DNA of 64,000 nt. Source: Candidatus Wolfebacteria bacterium GW2011_GWB1_47_1 (GTDB lineage: Bacteria > Patescibacteriota > Minisyncoccia > UBA6257 > UBA9933). The notes under the pieces are model-generated. The model was not told where the DNA came from. It made no database searches and saw only the letters and a list, made by a program, of their open reading frames with translations. Position numbers and translations under genes: made by a program. The DNA lies in the NCBI GenBank assembly GCA_001029635.1, contig CP011209.1:618435-682434 (forward strand). Direction: 5' to 3'. This document shows, piece after piece, positions 22,509-51,021 of this stretch. How positions within the stretch are numbered: position 1 is the first letter of the stretch; the number at the start of each line of letters is the position of its first letter.

Positions 22509-22623
22509 ATTGACAGTGTTATTATGTTAACGAGTTAACGGGTTGCGCGTTAGGCATCCCACCGAATCGACTACTCTAATTATATACTTCCGTGGAAAAT
22601 TTAACACTGCGATCGATCACCGT

Positions 22624-22654
22624 AAAACAAAAAACGCCCCGGGAGGGGCGTTGC
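22624..22654 (-). terminator. Intrinsic terminator, family 1 (cgccccgggaggggcg)
   Basis: Hairpin plus T-run on the minus strand after gene 22669..23022. This 31-mer is identical to 23090-23120. Confidence 0.75.
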
Positions 22655-22668
22655 GGATTTGCGACAAC

Positions 22669-23022
22669 TTACGGAAGATGGCCACTGCGATCAGGAGGGA
22701 TATAGTTCATGTATATGATCTGGATGCTGTAGCGGTACATGCCAGGATACTTGCTGATGATATCCAGGATCGGTGCAAGCGTAGCCGCGTCTTTGCATGT
22801 GTGATAGATGCGTACGTACGGAGTACCCGTGAACCTTTCCTGGACCCTTCCGCCGATGTACACTTCCTTGTCGTCGGTGATCGCTGTTACGATAAGGTCG
22901 ATGTCGGGGAATGCTTCCCGAAAATAGAGGGTAATTTTTTGATCGGTATTTTGTAGGTCCCATAACGCTTGCCCTCTGCCAATGCCATGGAATTCGATCT
23001 GAACTGTTATCCTTGAATTCAT
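22669..23022 (-). CDS. Hypothetical protein (117 aa), orphan cassette
   Basis: GGAGGAG SD, own promoter and terminator. C-terminal ...IIYMNYIPPD motif is shared with two other orphans. Confidence 0.65.
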   Translation of the reverse strand: MNSRITVQIEFHGIGRGQALWDLQNTDQKITLYFREAFPDIDLIVTAITDDKEVYIGGRVQERFTGTPYVRIYHTCKDAATLAPILDIISKYPGMYRYSIQIIYMNYIPPDRSGHLP

Positions 23023-23089
23023 CTAGTCTCCTCCACTCTCTATGTGATGATATACTAGGTCTAGTGTGTCTTATTATTCCGGGTTTGTC

Positions 23090-23120
23090 AAAACAAAAAA
23101 CGCCCCGGGAGGGGCGTTGC
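23090..23120 (-). terminator. Intrinsic terminator, family 1 (exact duplicate of 22624-22654), T-run fused to TTGACA
   Basis: Identical 31-mer. On the minus strand the T-run runs into gttTTGACAaac, the -35 of the next gene. Confidence 0.75.
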
Positions 23121-23132
23121 TGCGACGAAGGG

Positions 23133-23480
23133 TTAGTTAGTCGGGAGAGTCGCGAGCGTCTTAAGGAAAGAGCGATAGCTGTCAATCTGAACCCCATCTG
23201 TCAATTGCAGATCGAATGTTCCTTTAAGTGGTTCCAGTGCCTCAGCGACAGAAAGCATTGCGGGGTTGTCCATTTCTCCGACGATGCGAATAATCGGCTT
23301 TGCCCGCTTAAGAGCTGAATGTAGCGAAATACGCCTGTTGTTTTCTGACACGATAATACAACACTGATCCCTGGCCTCCTGAGAAATACCTCCGAGTGCT
23401 TTTTTGATATCACCTAGCGTTGCACCTGTCATCTTTTGATCAGCGAAATCACCGATGCCATCTATAAAGATATTAATCAT
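23133..23480 (-). CDS. Hypothetical protein (115 aa), orphan cassette
   Basis: AAGGAGAG SD. TTGACA-N17-TAAGGT upstream. Own terminator. Confidence 0.65.
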   Translation of the reverse strand: MINIFIDGIGDFADQKMTGATLGDIKKALGGISQEARDQCCIIVSENNRRISLHSALKRAKPIIRIVGEMDNPAMLSVAEALEPLKGTFDLQLTDGVQIDSYRSFLKTLATLPTN

Positions 23481-23576
23481 ACTACATCTCTCCTTTCTGT
23501 GGCTTGCTATGAACTAAAAGTACCTTAATTCTAAATATTTTTCCTGTCAATTTATTTGGTTAAAAAAACGCCCCAG

Positions 23577-23596
23577 GTGGGGCGTTGGATGCGTGT
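23577..23596 (-). terminator. Intrinsic terminator, family 1 variant (aacgccccaggtggggcgtt)
   Basis: Hairpin plus T-run on the minus strand after gene 23601..23957. Confidence 0.7.
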
Positions 23597-23600
23597 CTTG

Positions 23601-23957
23601 CTAAAGTTCATCCAGATAACTTTGCCGCACTACTGCGGGCGGGTTTGACGGATTGTACCACTCCCCCTTTTTTGCCTTGGGCGGAATGTAAGACGGCATA
23701 GGGATGATATTGATGCCGTATCCTGCTGCCCGGGTGTGTTGCTCCCGTGTGCGGATCAATGTGACGATCACGGTAACATCTTCTTCCGGTTCTACCCCGA
23801 TGCGGATGATAGAGGCCGGAGCATCGCTAACCACCCGAAACATGCAGTCTTTTGTGTTAATACCGTACGTTTCGATTGCTAGCCGCATTTGTCCGAGACT
23901 TTCTTCTGCCCATTGCCGTTGGTCCGGGGATTCTATCTGTAGTTCGAAAAAGACCAT
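23601..23957 (-). CDS. Hypothetical protein (118 aa), orphan cassette
   Basis: AAGGAGG SD with TTGACA upstream. C-terminal ...INIIPMPSYIPPK motif. Confidence 0.65.
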   Translation of the reverse strand: MVFFELQIESPDQRQWAEESLGQMRLAIETYGINTKDCMFRVVSDAPASIIRIGVEPEEDVTVIVTLIRTREQHTRAAGYGINIIPMPSYIPPKAKKGEWYNPSNPPAVVRQSYLDEL

Positions 23958-24031
23958 AGGTCCTCCTTTTTCATGAGCTGATGATCTAGAAGTACCCTAT
24001 GGCAAATTGCTTGGCGTGTCAATTTGATTGC

Positions 24032-24059
24032 AAAAAGGCCCACATCGTACTGGCCTTTG
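24032..24059 (-). terminator. Intrinsic terminator after the peptidase E-like gene
   Basis: aaaggcc...ggccttt hairpin with a T-run on the minus strand, followed by TTGACA. Confidence 0.6.
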
Positions 24060-24146
24060 GGTAGATTATAGGAGGAAGTCTTTGCTGGAATTTTCTGCGT
24101 TTCTGATATACGCCAAAACAAAAAAACGTTATGGATGTTGTTACGA

Positions 24147-24770
24147 TTATAGCGAGACTATTTTGAATGTATTGTTCTCCAGCCATACCGCCTGAGTGTC
24201 CTGGATAAAAAGAAGTGGGTCGGTATTGATTGGGAGCTTTTCGACGACTTTGCCAAATTCGTTTACGAACTCCGGATTGTTGGAGTGTGGCATGATGCTG
24301 AAGTTTATGATTCCTAACCCCTTTTGATCAGGTACATCAGCGAGGAATGGCTTTTCCTCTTCGTCGAATGCGAACATTGCGAGTGAGGGCCCCATGATCA
24401 TCGCTCCCGCGCTGGTGCCGGTATAGATGATGGAATCGTTTTTGATCGTATCAACAATAGTCGATTCAAGCCCTCTCTTTCTGATCAGCCCGACGAGATA
24501 AAAAACAGCTCCACCTGCAATGTGTAGTATATCTGCGTCCGCGAGCGTTTGCTCGAGTTCTTCTGCGGTGATGGTGCGTAGGTCGATATCCGTCGTTTCG
24601 TATCCGAGCTCCTTAAATTTTATTCGATCGTTATCTACCCACCATGGGTGTTCTTGCGCATTATCTGATGCGTTTGCAATAAAGGCAACTTTTGTTGCGG
24701 GTTTATTTTTTAATAGCGGTCTTAGGAGTGGGAGGGTTTTGTCGAGTGATGAGGCGAGGAAGAGATACAT
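24147..24770 (-). CDS. S51 family peptidase (dipeptidase E-like)
   Basis: YTGTSAGAMIMG (Ser nucleophile context) and the ...IMPHSN region. Length is about 207 aa. Confidence 0.7.
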   Translation of the reverse strand: MYLFLASSLDKTLPLLRPLLKNKPATKVAFIANASDNAQEHPWWVDNDRIKFKELGYETTDIDLRTITAEELEQTLADADILHIAGGAVFYLVGLIRKRGLESTIVDTIKNDSIIYTGTSAGAMIMGPSLAMFAFDEEEKPFLADVPDQKGLGIINFSIMPHSNNPEFVNEFGKVVEKLPINTDPLLFIQDTQAVWLENNTFKIVSL

Positions 24771-24782
24771 TATCTATTGTAT

Positions 24783-25397
24783 TTATTTAACTTTAGCTCC
24801 CGATTCAATCTTCTTTTCTGGGGTCAATAAGACCGGGTTTTCTGCGCCACCTGCGGCGAGGAGCATGCCATGGCTTTCAACACCCATGAGGGCTCGTGGG
24901 GCCAGGTTTGCTACTATGATGATCTCTTTGCCGATGAGTTCGTCCGGTCTGTATGCCTTGCCGATACCCGCAACGATCTGGCGACTTTCTTCGCCGAGTT
25001 CGAGTTGGAGCTTAATGAGCTTCTCTGACTTTTCTACGCGTATAGCCTCCTTAATCTTGGCTACCTTCAATTCCACCTTTGCAAAATCATCGTAGGTGAT
25101 TTCGCCATCCTTAGTAGCGGTTTCTACAGTCAATTTTTCTTTTGTCGGTTCTTGTTCCTTTACCGCTTCCTTATGAACAGCCGATTTTGGCTTGCGCTTA
25201 GTATATAGGTAATAGACTTCGAGAATACCGACGGCATTAATCAACAACAATGCGATAAACCAACCCCTTTCTTTGCGTTCAAATGCGCGGAGCAGCGCGG
25301 CTCCTTTGATGATGAATGACCACGCGAGTAGGATAAGAAACGTGAGCGGATACTGAATAATGAGTGAGAGCAAGAAGAATTGAATTTCGGTTGACAT
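24783..25397 (-). CDS. Fusion protein: N-terminal DUF5652-like 2-TM anchor + C-terminal tRNA-binding (Trbp111/CsaA/EMAP-type OB) domain
   Basis: C-terminus FAKVELKVAKIKEAIRVEKSEKLIKLQLELGEESRQIVAGIGKAY...IIIVANLAPRALMGVESHGMLLAA is the classic tRNA-binding domain. N-terminus ...KGAALLRAFERKERGWFIALLLINAVGILEVYYLY is membrane-embedded. Confidence 0.7.
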   Translation of the reverse strand: MSTEIQFFLLSLIIQYPLTFLILLAWSFIIKGAALLRAFERKERGWFIALLLINAVGILEVYYLYTKRKPKSAVHKEAVKEQEPTKEKLTVETATKDGEITYDDFAKVELKVAKIKEAIRVEKSEKLIKLQLELGEESRQIVAGIGKAYRPDELIGKEIIIVANLAPRALMGVESHGMLLAAGGAENPVLLTPEKKIESGAKVK

Positions 25398-25472
25398 ATG
25401 CTTGAATTTGTTAGTATTGCGTTATGCATTAGTATAGCGGGTTTTGGGTATGTTTGAAAAGTATCCCTTATC

Positions 25473-25499
25473 AAAAAGGGCACGTCGTGCGTGCCCTTT
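25473..25499 (-). terminator. Intrinsic terminator after gene 25505..25831
   Basis: gggcacg tcgtg cgtgccc stem with A/T runs on both sides. Confidence 0.65.
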
Positions 25500-25504
25500 G
25501 CGCC

Positions 25505-25831
25505 TTACTTGCCTTTTGCGGCGACGAGCTCTTTGAGGCGTTTTTTCGCCTCTCTGAGTTTTTTGGATGATTTCTTGGCCGGGATGCCGTATTTTTTGAT
25601 TGGCCTGTCCCCTGCCTGCTCGTAGAACTCGATCTTGATGCGTGAGTCGCCGTTGTTTTTTAGCCGCGTGATGAACTCGTGTGCGACGTAGTATCCCTTC
25701 TTTTCCTTACTTTGAAATGGGAAGGTTACCTCGTTGCCGCTTGCTGCACAGGTCTCCGCTAGCGCAGCGACGATGGTTTCGTTTGAAAAATGGTTTCGTG
25801 GAACGACGATGTACTTATACTTTGGCGGCAT
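25505..25831 (-). CDS. Hypothetical protein (108 aa) with Lys-rich C-terminal tail, orphan cassette
   Basis: GAGGGGGA SD and own terminator. No family recognised. Confidence 0.6.
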   Translation of the reverse strand: MPPKYKYIVVPRNHFSNETIVAALAETCAASGNEVTFPFQSKEKKGYYVAHEFITRLKNNGDSRIKIEFYEQAGDRPIKKYGIPAKKSSKKLREAKKRLKELVAAKGK

Positions 25832-25895
25832 ACACTCCCCCTCTTTTCCTCAGTGATATGAACTAAACGTAGCGTCGCATGTATCGATGGTTCTG

Positions 25896-25930
25896 TCAAA
25901 AAAGCCCCCGATTGCTCGGGGGCTTGACTG
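25896..25930 (-). terminator. Intrinsic terminator, family 2 (gcccccgattgctcgggggc), T-run fused to TTGACA
   Basis: Identical to 26464-26497 except for a 1-nt indel. Confidence 0.75.
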
Positions 25931-25941
25931 ACTTTCTGGCT

Positions 25942-26376
25942 TTACGAGAGGGGTGGGATGTACAGCACTACCAAATCCTCTTCCGTTCCCGGATTTGGAA
26001 TGTTGATGATCTCGCCTTCGATTTCATGGTGTGCGAGTACTCTCTGATACTGTTTCGCAGCCTCCAATCGACCAGCGTATTCGCCGAAACCATTGGGATA
26101 CAGGAGTGTTCCGGCGTCGAGTGATTTGCCGGCAACTTTCTCTACGTGGGCGATGAATCCAGGCTCTTCCTCCTGAATGAGTACGGAGAAGCCGCGTTGT
26201 TGCGTCGGGCCGATGAACGGCGGAATGTCGTATCGTTGTAGGATATCAATGATCGGAGCACTCCGTTGGAGGCGTATCAACGCGCTGTTGTATGCTTTCT
26301 TGCGCGCTTTGTTCCCTACTTTTTCCCCGATCGCATCAGCTCGTTCGTATAGATCGCCTTGGTCTATTTTGTCCAT
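25942..26376 (-). CDS. Hypothetical protein (144 aa), orphan cassette
   Basis: GGAGGG SD. TTGACA-N17-TATTTT upstream. Ends ...IINIPNPGTEEDLVVLYIPPLS. Confidence 0.65.
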   Translation of the reverse strand: MDKIDQGDLYERADAIGEKVGNKARKKAYNSALIRLQRSAPIIDILQRYDIPPFIGPTQQRGFSVLIQEEEPGFIAHVEKVAGKSLDAGTLLYPNGFGEYAGRLEAAKQYQRVLAHHEIEGEIINIPNPGTEEDLVVLYIPPLS

Positions 26377-26463
26377 GGTCCCTCCGTTAGGACGTATATG
26401 TTAGTACTATCGACAAAAATAGCCCGAATAGATTACTTTGTCAAAGCTTTCCGATATCGCCTA

Positions 26464-26497
26464 TCAAAAAACCCCCGATTGCTCGGGGGCTTGACTG
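26464..26497 (-). terminator. Intrinsic terminator, family 2 (duplicate of 25896-25930)
   Basis: Same hairpin and flanks, about 70 nt downstream of the stop of gene 26563..27186. Confidence 0.75.
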
Positions 26498-26562
26498 TCG
26501 AAAGGCTAACCGAGAATTATTGTTCCTCGTCTTCCCTTCTTGTCTATTATGGACCGTATTGT

Positions 26563-27186
26563 CTACGACTCTTGGTCCTGGGTTTTTGCAGTAGTCCACC
26601 TGCTGAAGATTTCCTTGCTTCGCTCATCGATGTTGGGATTGGTGAATCCATGCCTTTCGCAGAAGGCCTCAACGGTATTCTCGAGGCTTTTCCAAAAGGA
26701 GATTATTTCCACATACCTTTGTTTCGACGCGAGGTAGATTCTCTCATTCTCCTTTTTATCGAGGGAGCCGCCGAAGTACTCTTCTCCGAGTGGTTTGAGC
26801 GTGTTATTGTCGCCGATGCGCATTTCCCATATCTCTATCTCACTCCCATCGGGAGGACCGAATACGTGGGCGATTTTCTTGAACGAAGTGTCGGCATGTT
26901 TCTCGACTGTTGTTTGCAACAGGCCGAGCAGCTCTTGGATGTGGGCTTCGGGCGATGCAATTGAGATGTTCAGGTGTCCCCATGGCTCCGGGTAAAAGCT
27001 ACTCGGGTGGTTTTTATCTGCTTCATCCGTTTCGTCGAGGTGTCCCGAACAACTCACGCCGAATGAGGCGCAGAACGGGATCTGATGGAACAGTTCGACG
27101 AGGGTTCGAAATAGCAGATCAATTCCGCGAAATCCATACCTACTTTCCAGTAATCTGACCGCTGCGTGTTGCCGTCCGCATCCCAT
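26563..27186 (-). CDS. Hypothetical protein (207 aa), orphan cassette
   Basis: GAGGAG SD. TTGACA at 27246-27251 (minus). No family recognised. Confidence 0.65.
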   Translation of the reverse strand: MGCGRQHAAVRLLESRYGFRGIDLLFRTLVELFHQIPFCASFGVSCSGHLDETDEADKNHPSSFYPEPWGHLNISIASPEAHIQELLGLLQTTVEKHADTSFKKIAHVFGPPDGSEIEIWEMRIGDNNTLKPLGEEYFGGSLDKKENERIYLASKQRYVEIISFWKSLENTVEAFCERHGFTNPNIDERSKEIFSRWTTAKTQDQES

Positions 27187-27286
27187 ATTTTACTCCTCTT
27201 GATTATTATTGGTGTACTAAAAATACAATACCTATTCGCACCCATTTTGTCAAAGTCTTTTGCCGACATCCTTTTCAATACAACGG

Positions 27287-27400
27287 CATACCATCGATGA
27301 AATTGAATCAATAGCCCTCTTGTATAAATATACGTGTTTCTCACGTAAATGGTTCAGTCGGGAATCGATGTAAGTCGATCCAGTCGTCTCCATGATCCTA
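27287..27400 (-). pseudogene. queA: Decayed fragment of queA (internal about 37 codons)
   Basis: 27287-27342 matches 29777-29832 at 55/56, with weaker similarity to about 27400. Two in-frame TGA codons and a frameshift relative to the intact queA. Confidence 0.8.
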
Positions 27401-27489
27401 TTAATGCATGTGTTCCGTAGCACCTATTATTAATGGATAATGCAGAACCGCCCCGAATACTGTCATGTTAGAGTTGATCGAGAAGTTGG

Positions 27490-28314
27490 TTAATCATCGT
27501 CGTCGTCATCACCTTTTTGGGACGCTGACGGCGTTGGGGTTGTCGTTTGTTGGATTGCCTGCGAGGTTGTCTGCTGTCCGACCGCTCCAACGAGATAGTT
27601 TGCAAGCATTTGATGCGCATTCATCGAATGAGGCAGCCCCTCAAATGCAGCCGTTCCATCCCTTCCACAATAAGGGCGTATCGCGCCTACCCCGCCTGGA
27701 TGTCTCGGAATATAGCTTGTTACGTTGTAGACATTGCCATTGACGATCATCCAGCAATCGTCTGTTGTGCTGTGTTTCGCAATTTCCTGAATTGATAACG
27801 TTACTGATGGATTGGTCACGGTCGTGCTTAGTGTCGTCGGCTTTGCAGTCGATGTTGTTGGTTGTGCTGTTGCGGTCGTCGGCTTTTGCGTGGCCGCATT
27901 TTGTGCTACAGGTTTCTGTCCGAAGTCCCCTATGTAGTAGGCCTTGAGCATTTCGGTCGCGTTTTGCGAATGTGACTTTGGACTGGATGTCCGCCCTTTA
28001 GTCGCGTAGGCTTGCGTCGCATCCGTTCCACAGGTTGGGAGAATCGTGCTTGCATCTCCCGGATGTTTATCGAGATAGGTCGTTACGTCGTAGACTTTGC
28101 CGCTCACAAGGAGCCAACAACTTGCGGCGGTATTGTGCGTCAAAATCTCTCGCATAGATAACAGGGCTCCTGGTGCTACTACTGAGGCCGATTGCTGTTC
28201 CGGAGGAATCTCAACAGCCTGTTGTTTATTTTGATAAAACACTAATCCTGAGGTTAATAACGCAGTTACTAATGCCCAGAAGATAAGAAGTGATACCGCG
28301 GTCAATTTTTTCAT
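27490..28314 (-). CDS. Membrane-anchored protein with two cytochrome b5-like heme-binding domains, Thr-rich linkers and a poly-Asp tail
   Basis: Two copies of the ...CW(L/M)xVxGxVY(D/N)VT.Y...HPG(G/D) pattern, each with a downstream His (KSHS, LPHS). N-terminal signal anchor. Ends in KGDDDDDD. Confidence 0.75.
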   Translation of the reverse strand: MKKLTAVSLLIFWALVTALLTSGLVFYQNKQQAVEIPPEQQSASVVAPGALLSMREILTHNTAASCWLLVSGKVYDVTTYLDKHPGDASTILPTCGTDATQAYATKGRTSSPKSHSQNATEMLKAYYIGDFGQKPVAQNAATQKPTTATAQPTTSTAKPTTLSTTVTNPSVTLSIQEIAKHSTTDDCWMIVNGNVYNVTSYIPRHPGGVGAIRPYCGRDGTAAFEGLPHSMNAHQMLANYLVGAVGQQTTSQAIQQTTTPTPSASQKGDDDDDD

Positions 28315-28320
28315 GGATTT

Positions 28321-29625
28321 TTAGCGGAAGCCGAATTCTTCCGTATGTATATGTGATTTTTTTGTGCCCTTTTCAATTAATTGTCGTGTGAGGGAATGCA
28401 TCATAGGTTGCGGCCCACAAATCAGGATTTCCTTACTGTGAATATCCTCGTCCATCTGGAGTGTTGCCGCAGAAATGTGCCCTTGCGTACTTGAACAGTA
28501 TGGAACTATGCGTATACTTGGGTTGCCTTGTTCGATTGTAAGCAGTTCGTCGAGAAATACTGCCTCGGCTTTATTAGTTACGCAGTAATAGATTGTTATG
28601 TGATAGGACGAATCAGTTACCGATTTCGCCATACCAATGAATGGTGTTATGCCGATGCCGCCCGCTATCCAGATCTGGTTTTTTCCTGCAAAATGGTCGT
28701 ATAAAAATGTGCCAAAAGGACCCTCTATCTGTGCAACCGTATTCTTTGCTATCAATTTGAATTTGCCGGTATGATCTCCGAGTGTCTTTATTGCTATTGC
28801 TAATCGTGGTTCATCGGGAGTGGATATGAGCGAAAATGGATGTGACTCTTTGCCCACCTTCTCATCTTCAAAACTAATAAATACAAACTGGCCTGGTCTG
28901 TAGGCGATAGGCCTGTATGCTGGCACCATATAGATGGAAACGGTATTCTTGTCCAATGTACGCACCTCATCGACGATATATTCGATATGTGGAACAAAGA
29001 ATTTCGGGGCTAATGTGCGATAACAGATCGCCACCACGCCGATCGCGATAAATGTCGCCATCAGCCAATATAATCCTGCAGAGTTTTGTGTATCGCTATA
29101 GATGACCAAGGTGTGGATCGACGCAAGAACAAACGATACGGAAAGAAACTGGTGCGTAAGCCTCCATTTGTGATACGCGAAACTGATAAAGAAGGTCAAT
29201 ATAAGAAACAGTATCATCGAAAGCAATGCGGCAGTACCCCAGAGGATATCGGGGTCCGTTGAAAGTAAAAATAATGCCGCGTCCCGGGTGGATGCAACGA
29301 GAGCAATCTTCAGGGCAATCACTATCGGATGAAATAAGAGTAATGAGAATGTGATCGCGCCAAGTCGATGGTGAGCCACATATGCTTTATTAATGCCATC
29401 GAAGAATTGTTCCAGTATCGGATGGCGGGTGCCAAGTACTAACGTCAATGCAAATAATGCCATTCCTATCAACCCAAAGATTTGACCAATACTGGTTAGT
29501 GTATATGTGGGCGTTTCAAATCGCAGGGTAATCGGCTTCATGGTCGCCCAAAATAATAGTGGCAAAAGCGAAAGCGCCACAATAATCAACCACCCCGATG
29601 ACCTTTTTATACGCTGCAGCTTCAT
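28321..29625 (-). CDS. Ferric reductase/NADPH oxidase (FRD/NOX) family flavocytochrome: 6-TM bis-heme domain + FAD + NAD(P)H domains
   Basis: Hx13H (HHRLGAITFSLLLFH) and Hx12H (HQFLSVSFVLASIH) pairs in TM helices. HPFS (FAD), GGIGITPF (NAD(P)H) and a C-terminal CGP motif. Confidence 0.8.
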   Translation of the reverse strand: MKLQRIKRSSGWLIIVALSLLPLLFWATMKPITLRFETPTYTLTSIGQIFGLIGMALFALTLVLGTRHPILEQFFDGINKAYVAHHRLGAITFSLLLFHPIVIALKIALVASTRDAALFLLSTDPDILWGTAALLSMILFLILTFFISFAYHKWRLTHQFLSVSFVLASIHTLVIYSDTQNSAGLYWLMATFIAIGVVAICYRTLAPKFFVPHIEYIVDEVRTLDKNTVSIYMVPAYRPIAYRPGQFVFISFEDEKVGKESHPFSLISTPDEPRLAIAIKTLGDHTGKFKLIAKNTVAQIEGPFGTFLYDHFAGKNQIWIAGGIGITPFIGMAKSVTDSSYHITIYYCVTNKAEAVFLDELLTIEQGNPSIRIVPYCSSTQGHISAATLQMDEDIHSKEILICGPQPMMHSLTRQLIEKGTKKSHIHTEEFGFR

Positions 29626-29629
29626 ATAT

Positions 29630-30667
29630 TCAGTATATCAACATACCATCTCCAAATGAAAAGAATCGAAACTTTCGTTTAATTGCAATCTTGTAGAGCT
29701 TGAAGAGTGTATCCTTGCCGATCAGTGCCGCAACCAGCATCAAGAGGCTGGATTGTGGCACGTGAAAGTTGGTTACCATACCATCGATGAAATTGAATCG
29801 ATAGCCCTCTTGTATAAATATACGTGTTTCTCCTGTTAAACGTTTCAATTGGGAATCGATACAGGCTGACTCAAGTGTTCGGACTACTGTCGTACCTACT
29901 CCGATAATGGGGCGGCCTTCCTCCTTCGCCTTGTTGAGAAAGTTTGCCGTCTGCTTGTCTATTGAAAATGATTCGGTGTGTAGCGCGCCGGTATCGAGAT
30001 GCTCCTGCGTAAGTGGCGCAAATGTACCAATGTTTACATGGAGTGTTATAAAGCGAATGTCTACCCCCTGCTTCTGCAGCTTTTTTAATAGGCGATCAGT
30101 AAAATGGAGCGATGCGGTTGGTGCTGCGACTGAGCCGGCATGCTTAGCAAATACCGTCTGGTATTTTTTACGCAATTCGCGTTCGTTGAGTGGCGATTCT
30201 TTTATGTAAGGAGGGATCGGCGTGATGCCATGGCGATCAAGTATCGTATTGAGCTGCTGTAATGGAAACGATGGCTTAAGTAGATAATATTTTCCTTCTT
30301 GTTTTGCAACATTAAAAAATAAGCCACTTGTGATCCGGACATTGGTTCCTACTTCGAGCTTGCGATCTGACATAGCGCGGATTACATCTCCCTCTTGGGC
30401 AATATAAAGGATGCGCGCGGTTCCTCCTGTCGGTTTGGTAACCGTCAGGCGCGCGGGAAGAACTTTTGTTTGGTTGAATACCAATACCGCGCCCTTTGGC
30501 AGGTATTCCCCTATATGCGCAAAGGTCGTTTCAGTGATCGAATCGGCATTTCGATCGTATACCAAAAGTTTGGCGCTATCGCGGGGCGATGCGGGCTTTT
30601 GCGCGATCAGCGTTTCTGGAAATGCGTAATCGTATTCTTTGAGTATTTTTTCTAGTGGTTTTGACAT
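29630..30667 (-). CDS. queA: S-adenosylmethionine:tRNA ribosyltransferase-isomerase
   Basis: YDYAFPETLIAQKPASPRDSAKLLV..., GITPIPPYIKE and FFSFGDGMLI motifs. Start set at the ATG at 30667, just after the upstream stop. Confidence 0.9.
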   Translation of the reverse strand: MSKPLEKILKEYDYAFPETLIAQKPASPRDSAKLLVYDRNADSITETTFAHIGEYLPKGAVLVFNQTKVLPARLTVTKPTGGTARILYIAQEGDVIRAMSDRKLEVGTNVRITSGLFFNVAKQEGKYYLLKPSFPLQQLNTILDRHGITPIPPYIKESPLNERELRKKYQTVFAKHAGSVAAPTASLHFTDRLLKKLQKQGVDIRFITLHVNIGTFAPLTQEHLDTGALHTESFSIDKQTANFLNKAKEEGRPIIGVGTTVVRTLESACIDSQLKRLTGETRIFIQEGYRFNFIDGMVTNFHVPQSSLLMLVAALIGKDTLFKLYKIAIKRKFRFFSFGDGMLIY

Positions 30668-30671
30668 CGGC

Positions 30672-31160
30672 TTACGGACGGAGGTATTCTTTGTTGATCT
30701 CGATCCGCTCATCGATAATTGAATTCGGATCGTTCATCCAGATCTTTGAGGGAGCTATCTTATATAATCTATAGGTGTTCTCATTGAGCAATTTTTTCAA
30801 TCCCGTATTGAATGATTTTGTTGCACGTGCGTAGGGATATGTCCGTTTGAAGTAGGTTAATGATACCTCTGGTATTTCTAAAAGTGTTACCCTTTTTGCT
30901 GTTCCTTCGATCTGTAACCCTACCCCATCCCCTATCAATTGATGGGAATCGAATATCGCCACTGCAACGCTTTTGTTCTGCCCGATATTCACACAATGTT
31001 TTGAGCGGATATGGGAAACGAAATATAAATTCAGATCATTGTCGTATGCATATACAACCGGAGATACCCATGCCGTACCGTTTTTGCCGGCACTTCCAAT
31101 CGTCATGTATTGGTTGCTCTCCAGTATCTCTTTTGCCAATTTTTGCACATCGATTGCCAT
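30672..31160 (-). CDS. Pyridoxamine 5'-phosphate oxidase-like FMN-binding family protein
   Basis: Split-barrel family pattern (...YMTIGSAGKNGTAWVSPVVYAYDNDLNLYFVS...). Sits between tgt and queA. Confidence 0.6.
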   Translation of the reverse strand: MAIDVQKLAKEILESNQYMTIGSAGKNGTAWVSPVVYAYDNDLNLYFVSHIRSKHCVNIGQNKSVAVAIFDSHQLIGDGVGLQIEGTAKRVTLLEIPEVSLTYFKRTYPYARATKSFNTGLKKLLNENTYRLYKIAPSKIWMNDPNSIIDERIEINKEYLRP

Positions 31161-31164
31161 AGGA

Positions 31165-32301
31165 TTATATTTTTCCCTTTTTAATCTCTTCACGCACTTT
31201 CTTCACGAATCCGTGGAAGAAGTACATGTTGTGGAATGTGAGTAACTTAAGTGGCGTTATTTCGTTTGCCTTCAAGAGATGTGTGATATACCCCCTGCTG
31301 TAGTTTTGACATACAAAACACGAGCACTTTGGATCGAGGGGTTTTTTATCCAATAAAAATGTTCTTTTTTTCAAATCCAAGCGCCCTTTCGACGTAAATG
31401 CCATACCATGCCGCGCGTAATGCGTCGGAGCGATGCAGTCGAATGTATCGATGCCTGACTTCATGATCGGGATGATATCGTCGAGATGTCCGATGCCGAG
31501 TAGGTGGCGCGGTTTATTTTCTGGTAGTTTCTTGGTTACGATATCGAGCATGCCCGTCATCGAGCCTTTGTCTGCTCCGAATTCTCCTCCAATACCGAAG
31601 CCATCGAATGGCAGACTTCCGATAAATTCTGCACTTTCGGTCCGTAGATCCTTAAACTTTCCTCCTTGTACAATACCGTAGAGTGCCTGTTTCGACTTTT
31701 TTGTCTTGAGACAAACCTTTGCCCATTCGTTAGTATGCTCGAGCGACTTTTTTGTATATGCGCGGTCGGCCATCGGCGATGTACATTCGTCGAATGCAAA
31801 GATAATATCCGCGCCGATTTGTTCTTGTATCTTGATCGATTCTTTTGGCCCGAGAAACATTTCGCTACCATCATGATAGGAGCGGAACATAACCCCGTCC
31901 GGTGTTATGCTAAGTAGCTTGGGTTGTTGGCCAAGCTCGATGATATTTTCGCTTTCCTTTTTTAGAATCTTACCGGTCTGGAAGTCCCGACCGAACCCAA
32001 GGCTAAATACTTGAAATCCGCCCGAATCCGTCATAATCGGACGTTTCCAATTCATGAATTTGTGCAGACCCCCGTGCTTTTTAAGTACGGCTTCGCCTGG
32101 ACGGATGTGGAGATGATAGGTGTTAGCGATCAGTAATTGTGCGCCTGTCGCCTCGACCTCCTCGGATGTAAGCGTTTTAATAACCCCCTGGGTTGCTACC
32201 GAAACGTAGGCAGGTGTCTCCACTGTGCCATGCGTTGTTTTGAGCATGCCTATGCGCGCCTTGCTCTTCGCCGATCGTTTTTTGATTTTGAATTCGATCA
32301 T
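31165..32301 (-). CDS. tgt: Queuine tRNA-ribosyltransferase (tRNA-guanine transglycosylase)
   Basis: MTDSGGFQVFSLG, the GIGGEF region and the zinc site CSCFVCQNYSRGYITHL. Confidence 0.95.
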   Translation of the reverse strand: MIEFKIKKRSAKSKARIGMLKTTHGTVETPAYVSVATQGVIKTLTSEEVEATGAQLLIANTYHLHIRPGEAVLKKHGGLHKFMNWKRPIMTDSGGFQVFSLGFGRDFQTGKILKKESENIIELGQQPKLLSITPDGVMFRSYHDGSEMFLGPKESIKIQEQIGADIIFAFDECTSPMADRAYTKKSLEHTNEWAKVCLKTKKSKQALYGIVQGGKFKDLRTESAEFIGSLPFDGFGIGGEFGADKGSMTGMLDIVTKKLPENKPRHLLGIGHLDDIIPIMKSGIDTFDCIAPTHYARHGMAFTSKGRLDLKKRTFLLDKKPLDPKCSCFVCQNYSRGYITHLLKANEITPLKLLTFHNMYFFHGFVKKVREEIKKGKI

Positions 32302-50612: not shown

Positions 50613-50830
50613 GAGCGCTCCTTTTCTTGTTGGGGTTGCGGTTGATGTCCTTGCCAAGACATTGTGAAATTCGAAATGTGCTACAGATTTTTATTTTACC
50701 ACATCATCTAATTTTGTCAACTAACACTCCGCTAACGCACATTTCGGCCAAAGTAATTTACAATACCCTAATAGGGCTCCGGTTACATTGTCATATCGGC
50801 GGAGGCCGGTATCCAGCATTGTTGTGGAAA

Positions 50831-51016
50831 AATAGTTTTAGGGTTGTGAACCTGGATCCCGTGTCGGAGCACGGGATGACAACAATGTTCCGTTACTATG
50901 GTGTATGTTTCCGCTCGCATGTCTTTTTCCAAGAACCGGGAAGGGTGAATGTGGTGGCGAATAGTATCGCCTGCTATGACGCTAATCTTTTGTTCGAAAT
51001 ATGCGTTGGTTGAGTA
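50831..51016 (+). repeat. Copy B of the two-copy element (uninterrupted form)
   Basis: See 1270..1556. Contains the 8-bp hairpin ATCCCGTG/CACGGGAT (50855-50876). Confidence 0.85.
50875..51012 (+). CDS. Candidate 45-aa small protein (MTTMFRYYGVCFRSHVFFQEPGRVNVVANSIACYDANLLFEICVG)
   Basis: GGAG sits in the hairpin loop 6 nt upstream of the ATG. A terminator follows directly. Plus strand within an otherwise minus-strand region. Confidence 0.45.
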
Positions 51017-51021
51017 ACTAA

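Follow-up and report, generated by a model that had tools for sequence, protein, structure and literature searches.

We found that a Candidatus Wolfebacteria genome carries a short dead fragment of queA 2.5 kb downstream of the intact gene, inside the 303-nt gap that follows a cytochrome-b5 gene. The best explanation, to which we give a probability of about one in two, is that the fragment is the stub of a collapsed tandem duplication, in which a duplication was followed by an internal deletion. The supported relic spans positions 27287-27369 of the window, i.e., of the whole 64-kb stretch of DNA analysed. These 83 nt (84 alignment columns) correspond to codons 285-312 of the 360-codon queA ORF. 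It is the sole gene-fragment relic found in the window. As a small rearrangement scar in the reduced genome of a member of the Candidate Phyla Radiation (CPR), it carries little weight in itself. Its value is that of a marker, pointing to the stretch from queA to the DUF5652/tRNA-binding gene in Candidatus Wolfebacteria as a hotspot in which a gene pair (FRE, encoding a ferric-reductase-like membrane flavoprotein, and b5, encoding a tandem cytochrome-b5 protein) and promoter-ORF-terminator orphan cassettes appear to be gained, lost, and reordered with no visible mobility genes. In the Wolfebacteria genome literature, we found nothing bearing on this locus.

All genes of the neighbourhood lie on the minus strand, in the order tgt, PNPOx-like gene, queA, FRE, b5, the 303-nt gap, orf207, orf144, orf108, DUF5652/tRNA_bind, and S51 peptidase (Table 1). 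The 360-codon queA ORF overlaps the PNPOx-like gene by 41 nt, and the true start is likely at 30667, which gives the 345-aa form found in databases. FRE starts 4 nt past the queA stop codon. Among otherwise identical strains, the b5 gene shows a 1-nt indel at window position 27560 (L005, L009), which alters the acidic C-terminal tail of the protein (281 aa vs 274).

Table 1. Positions of the queA relic, its parental segment, and the surrounding features in the window.
Feature	Position	Strand	Remarks
tgt	31165-32301	-	
PNPOx-like gene	30672-31193	-	between tgt and queA
intact queA (PF02547)	29630-30712	-	Pfam E = 2e-110; 360-codon ORF
parental segment in intact queA	29777-29860	-	codons 285-312 of the 360-codon ORF
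FRE, ferric-reductase-like membrane flavoprotein	28321-29625	-	Pfam Ferric_reduct + FAD_binding_8 + NAD_binding_1
b5, tandem cytochrome-b5 protein, two Cyt-b5 domains	27490-28314	-	Pfam E = 2e-44, two matched stretches
spacer, b5 stop codon to relic	27370-27489	-	120 nt; includes 27370-27400
diverged 5' part of relic	27343-27369	-	queA codons 285-293, IDSRLNHL...
relic core	27287-27342	-	queA codons 294 (from position 2) to 312, ETRIFIQEGY*FNFIDGM
promoter-like site for orf207	27225-27253	-	TTGACA-17-TATTGT, consensus scan 10/12; starts 33 nt beyond the relic
orf207	26563-27186	-	small family restricted to Wolfebacteria
orf144 cassette	25942-26376	-	own promoter and terminator
orf108 cassette	25505-25831	-	own promoter and terminator
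conserved DUF5652/tRNA_bind promoter region, CTTTTCAAAC..CCCAAAACCCGCTATACT	25424-25462	-	far edge of the window-specific insertion

Formal alignment of the two copies bore out the direct repeat reported in the initial annotation. Positions 27287-27342 agree with 29777-29832 at 55 of the 56 sites, and the two copies point the same way at a distance of 2,490 bp (binomial p = 2e-30; chance expectation for the window, about 1e-22 such pairs). Over the 84-column gapped alignment, the relic and queA share 90% identity (blastn E = 5e-26). The annotation had also extended the similarity, at two-thirds identity, over about 55 nt beyond this core. Roughly the nearer half of that extension stood: 27343-27369 is homologous to queA, with 20/24 matches in register at an offset of 2491 after a 1-nt deletion (p = 1e-8). 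The remainder, 27370-27400, showed no detectable likeness to queA, with 11/31 matches in the best register (p = 0.19) and a local alignment score not above those of shuffled sequences. An extension of the relic in the 5' direction to ~27400-27450, suggested by the resemblance by eye of 'PLIIGATE' to 'PIIGVGTT', was rejected on the same grounds (alignment equal to shuffles; 11/31 in register).

Translation of the relic gave FT*ETRIFIQEGY*FNFIDGM in one frame and IDSRLNHL in another, in agreement with the two in-frame TGA codons and the frameshift described earlier. The single mismatch of the core to queA turns CGA (Arg) into TGA, and the diverged 5' part bears the 1-nt deletion together with a GGA-to-TGA change. 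The coding capacity is gone: there is no start codon, the frame is disrupted, and only codons 285-312 of 360 are represented. The description of the fragment as a queA pseudogene relic is thus apt (E = 5e-26; two TGA codons, 1-nt deletion), and the fragment can be assigned to the queA of this very lineage, as detailed below. Its 3' edge is sharp and falls right after the DGM codons, as the annotation had stated; below 27287, only 6 of the 31 positions in 27256-27286 match queA, and the promoter-like site of the 207-aa ORF follows at 27253-27225. The two copies of the repeat bracket b5, FRE, and the last 147 nt of queA, a stretch that had been estimated at about 150 nt. The spacer between b5 and the relic showed no homology to the b5-downstream DNA of relatives and no Rfam match.

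The initial annotation had raised the possibility that the repeat is an assembly artefact, which we consider extremely improbable. The 4.15-kb arrangement including the relic was recovered at 11 loci from at least 8 independent assemblies (NCBI, ENA, JGI) with 99.6-100% identity. These assemblies were made with different assemblers and contain contigs as long as 526 and 633 kb; a 984-kb contig likewise carries the queA protein. Since the same arrangement recurs in at least 8 independent assemblies, the relic is not an artefact of any one of them. The observation that could speak for an artefact comes from L006 (GCA_003483105.1), assembled from metagenomic reads, in which the queA copy of the repeat contains NN and lacks 14 bases at window 29793-29808. 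The queA call in this assembly is split, with a separate 49-aa 'hypothetical protein' for the 3' end, indicating an assembly break at the repeat; assemblers are expected to break at a genuine 56-nt repeat. The repeat thus calls for caution by annotators and assemblers, having broken one metagenome-assembled genome. With their 99.6-100% identity, the 11 relic-bearing loci represent a single sampled strain-level population.

Two further members of the queA protein cluster are of note. P0143 (KKU37077.1), in the 90% cluster, is a frameshifted queA of 254 aa that diverges after ...DIRFIT in one metagenome-assembled genome; the frameshift may be real, marking an inactivated allele within the population, or may stem from an error in sequencing or assembly. 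P0144 (300 aa) has a length that fits a deletion product, but it is N-terminally truncated by the end of its contig and was rejected as such a product.

The relic core matches the queA of the window at 55/56 positions and those of relatives at 36-47/56, and it shares synonymous sites with the window's own gene. In addition, the IDSxL state in a hypervariable loop is common to the relic and the window queA and is absent from the best 45 of 120 queA homologues. On both criteria, the relic belongs to this lineage. No second queA piece was found in relatives at 70-80% queA identity. Sequence comparison thus places the copying of the relic from the own-lineage queA after the split from every sampled relative. 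Of the two scenarios offered in the initial annotation, import of the b5/FRE module and decay of a queA duplication, the latter is favoured, because the fragment derives from the gene of this lineage.

The locus is structured as Q1-[codons 285-360, FRE, b5, spacer]-[codons 285-312]-orf207 promoter. One 2,490-bp unit, made up of queA from codon 285 onward, FRE, b5, and the 120-nt spacer, is thus followed head to tail by 83 nt that match the start of a second copy, the relic. The relic lies directly after b5 and the spacer, in the same orientation, and its register gives a period of 2,490-2,491 bp. In the collapsed-duplication reading, the 2,490-bp unit would first have been duplicated in tandem in this Candidatus Wolfebacteria lineage; an internal deletion, with its edge exactly behind the DGM codons, would then have taken away all but the stub of the second copy. 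Later, the functional queA would have re-homogenised the 56-nt core by short-tract gene conversion. We infer this order of duplication and deletion from the present structure. The scheme needs no intermediate with a defective queA. It costs two events, and both joints are blurred at base level, with the homology fading to noise at 27370-27400.

The relic resembles the remnant of a collapsed tandem duplication in being head to tail and in the same orientation, in starting at the end of the first unit, in being truncated with stop codons and a frameshift, and in being confined to one lineage. It differs from the typical case in that merely 83 nt of the 2,490-bp unit are left, the joints are blurred, and the identity is strongly uneven along the stub, falling from 98% to ~75% and then to noise. 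The contrast between the near-perfect core and the diverged flank, which the annotation had taken as a sign of gene conversion or of an att-like recombination core, is real: the differences amount to 1/56 and 8/28, respectively (Fisher p = 0.0005; p = 0.014 when a clustered change is counted as one event). The flank is the most variable queA stretch in the clade (43% identity to relatives), and this variability explains part, but not all, of the unevenness. Short tracts of a pseudogene or paralogue are known to be converted by the functional copy; the locus has in common with such cases a sharply bounded near-identical block within diverged homology and a functional queA on the same strand, 2.5 kb off. 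What points to conversion here is the heterogeneity in identity alone, within a single strain-level population. The uneven identity is likely due to gene conversion or to a crossover in the best-conserved stretch. The att-like core, the other half of the earlier suggestion, was not supported, as there is neither a recombinase within 10 kb nor a displaced queA 3' end.

We compared the locus with those of relatives, none of which exceeds ~80% queA identity among the database matches. The backbone is conserved, in the order tgt-queA-[slot]-DUF5652/tRNA_bind-S51-small orphans-SOD, and the slot between queA and DUF5652 is variable. FRE and b5 occupy the slot in L051 and in L013, where FRE starts 5 nt after queA; they are preceded by an orf144 homologue in L012/L020 and by a TlyA-like gene in L017. 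The pair is therefore found between queA and DUF5652 in at least 5 other Candidatus Wolfebacteria lineages, and FRE and queA matches on apparently the same contigs imply the same linkage in further lineages. Neither a queA repeat nor flanking repeats were present in these other carriers (L012/L020, L013, L017, L051). FRE/b5 are absent from L015, L016, L018, L019, L021, and L022, where the slot holds nothing or one small ORF, and from L048, which has tgt, PNPOx, queA, orf177 (a distant orf144 relative), orf207 (66% identity), and DUF5652. The initial annotation had anticipated that, where the b5/FRE pair is missing, queA might abut the orphan genes. L048 fits this expectation, with queA followed by orphan cassettes including orf207. 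The relatives that carry the pair lack the repeat.

The PNPOx insertion between tgt and queA, as well as orf207, occurs in the window lineage and L048 only; elsewhere tgt and queA abut or overlap. As the only other lineage with both features, L048 is probably the closest sampled relative. The reading in which FRE/b5 are residents of the slot requires their loss in this lineage. No FRE/b5 remnants were detected in L048 or in any other empty slot and the backbone tree of the relatives is nearly a star, so gain and loss of the pair have no rigorous order. The state of L048 may reflect loss of FRE/b5, or an ancestral polymorphism combined with re-acquisition from a sibling strain in the window lineage. 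In L048, moreover, DUF5652/tRNA_bind is separated from the S51 peptidase by an inserted gene (L048:6629-7840) that contains SduA_C, a Shedu-type defence nuclease domain, and this insertion is further evidence of the neighbourhood as an accessory-gene hotspot.

In L013, L017, and L051, the DUF5652 promoter motif directly follows b5. The corresponding sequence in the window (25424-25462) is homologous to that directly after b5 in L013 and L017, with 0 of 400 shuffles reaching the score. Compared with the simplest order, queA-FRE-b5-DUF5652, the window-specific DNA consists of the 120-nt spacer, the relic, and three orphan cassettes. In the window, the relic and cassettes displace the DUF5652 promoter by ~2 kb from b5.

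These comparisons do not support an import of FRE/b5. The annotation's scenario, in which the module arrived by recombination at queA and regenerated the 3' end of the gene, finds no support in L012/L020, L013, L017, and L051, which have the pair in the same slot with no repeat. The tight queA-FRE junction is common to the window and L013 (4 nt vs 5 nt). The match profiles of the two genes run in parallel, with a group at 61-68% followed by 48% for FRE, and a group at 70-80% followed by 64% for queA. No closer FRE donor was found, the highest identity among the database matches being 68%. The branch of the window FRE is slightly longer than those of the other carriers (65-66% vs 69-72%). The GC3 values of FRE and b5 are typical of the window (z = -0.45 and -0.33), whereas the orphans are outliers (z = +1.0 to +2.2). 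No shift in similarity to relatives, as foreign DNA would cause, was seen in queA 3' of the core. A foreign origin of the queA 3' end or of FRE/b5 was accordingly rejected, there being no identity discontinuity, closer donor, or compositional deviation. FRE and b5 appear, on these sequence criteria, to be long-standing residents of the variable slot and not cargo.

The bracketing of a gene end by direct repeats recalls e14 and phage 21 in E. coli icd, which insert toward the 3' side of a protein-coding gene and bring along a substitute for its 3' end. As in icd, direct repeats of the target gene flank the segment, and the 3' end within the bracketed segment keeps the target intact. Unlike icd-type elements, the window locus has no integrase or other recombinase family within 10 kb on either side (21-kb gene table). 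Furthermore, the leftover is an internal piece of queA (codons 285-312) and not a displaced original 3' end, for which no tblastn signal was obtained beyond the relic (6/31 bases match below it), and the bracketed genes appear ancestral to the slot and have no repeats in other lineages. The lack of a recombinase, of a displaced 3' end, and of foreign cargo sets the relic apart from att-type elements. The locus also shares with homology-facilitated illegitimate recombination an exchange of accessory genes among related strains at a conserved anchor gene and the patchy slot presence across the clade. This mechanism, which acts during natural transformation, replaces DNA and does not duplicate the anchor; in the window, the anchor segment is duplicated. 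The relic fits the class of ordinary pseudogene stubs beside a parent gene, formed by local duplication and deletion.

Other histories would produce the same structure. A re-acquisition by Campbell-type recombination, which we regard as unlikely, also takes two steps and is formally equivalent to duplication plus deletion. It would start from a strain of the lineage that had lost the queA 3' end and FRE/b5 and regained them from a sibling strain on a circular 2.49-kb fragment (codon 285 to stop, FRE, b5, spacer) by one crossover in the 56-nt core, the flank of the relic being the allele of the other parent. The geometry agrees exactly, with direct repeats bracketing the queA 3' end, FRE, and b5, and a near-identical core beside a diverged flank is expected from a crossover in the best-conserved stretch of two alleles. 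The patchy presence of FRE/b5 across the clade is also in line with it, as is L048, the probable sister, with queA followed by orphan cassettes including orf207 and no FRE/b5. Against these points, the scheme needs an intermediate with a truncated queA or a later loss of the displaced 3' end, of which we saw no trace beyond the relic, and no truncated-queA variant is present in the 90% protein cluster. The IDSxL state of both relic and gene implies that the donor was a very close sibling, and no such allele occurs among the homologues screened. The lack of a closer FRE donor, of a foreign signal in queA 3' of the core, and of flanking repeats in other FRE/b5 carriers, together with the window-typical composition of FRE/b5, likewise argues against it. 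A bolder version takes the 56-nt core as an integrase-free recombination site, at which a RecA crossover excises the 2.49-kb module (queA 3' end, FRE, b5) as a circle that re-enters siblings. We consider this very unlikely. If true, it would account for the patchy FRE/b5 among Wolfebacteria, including the absence from L048, would represent a minimal mobile unit carrying a gene end in a CPR bacterium, and would offer accessory redox genes a route between CPR strains by homologous recombination alone.

It is also possible, if doubtful, that the relic was a short ectopic copy or templated patch, in which a break between b5 and the cassettes was filled with ~85-110 nt copied from queA, located on the same strand at a distance of 2.4 kb. 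This would have occurred by illegitimate recombination or template switching during cassette insertion or reshuffling, with the diverged 5' part resulting from error-prone synthesis near the joint. A single event would suffice. The relic coincides with the upstream border of the window-specific cassette block, a position taken by a terminator in the other cassettes; the cassettes occupy different positions in different lineages, and the identity drops progressively toward the 5' joint. On the other side, neither joint bears recognisable microhomology or ancestral spacer sequence, a search for microhomology or remnants of the ancestral b5-DUF5652 spacer beside the relic having given no significant result against L012, L013, and L017. 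The patch would be the sole one of its kind in the 64-kb window, and templated filler of ~85-110 nt is, to our knowledge, poorly documented in bacteria. We therefore retain the collapsed tandem duplication as the preferred reading.

Whether the relic has been recruited to a function is a separate matter, and we hold this to be very improbable. It might terminate weakly or insulate behind b5, contain a small functional ORF (27250-27423, 57 aa), or be kept as a substrate for recombination. A clustered change from ACAGG to CGTG, specific to the relic, creates a 6-bp hairpin at 27347-27331 on the minus strand (TACGTG-AGAAA-CACGTA, then TATTTAT), b5 otherwise has no terminator, and an open frame of 47-57 codons passes through the relic. 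The hairpin is weak, however, with a fold z-score of -1.8 and 10/200 shuffles folding at least as well, and real terminators of this genome have 8-bp GC-rich stems. The ORF has no family match and a length unremarkable for the base composition, the relic has no Rfam match, and nothing comparable exists in any relative. The intergenic region had no Rfam match at E up to 1, and the presence of a known RNA element, e.g., a preQ1 riboswitch, was rejected on this basis. The relic is, to judge from its sequence, probably functionless, or at most a 56-bp homology able to delete the 2.49-kb interval; such an event could in principle remove the queA 3' end along with FRE/b5.

Beyond the relic, the minus strand at window 22600-27260 holds six small ORFs without a family assignment, each arranged as a TTGACA promoter, a ribosome-binding site, the ORF, and a GC hairpin with a T-run. 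The cassette terminators run straight into the next -35 element, and L048:4540-5920 has the same architecture; the TTTGACAAAAT motif of the orf207 promoter-like site also heads the L048 cassettes. Near-identical terminators are found on unrelated ORFs (25899-25930 vs 26466-26497, 31/32; 22624-22654 vs 23090-23120, 31/31). The orf144 cassette lies between queA and FRE in L012 and after orf207 in the window, and this difference in placement indicates that cassettes are apparently reshuffled with no visible mobility gene. An integron-like cassette array was rejected, as no integrase is present and the cassette ends are plain 8-bp GC hairpins with T-runs, i.e., terminators. A phage or defence identity was likewise rejected for the orphan cassettes, which gave no PHROG or PADLOC matches; orf207 had no Pfam match either.

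Elsewhere in the window, we noted a non-coding dispersed repeat that is not matched in Rfam and has no tRNA nearby. Its two sites, 1266-1556 and 50828-51017, are 49.5 kb apart and share a 166-nt stretch (96% identity) and a shorter module of 54-63 nt (92-94%), of which the first site has two copies. The repeat holds the hairpin GGATCCCGTGTCG..GCACGGGATG.
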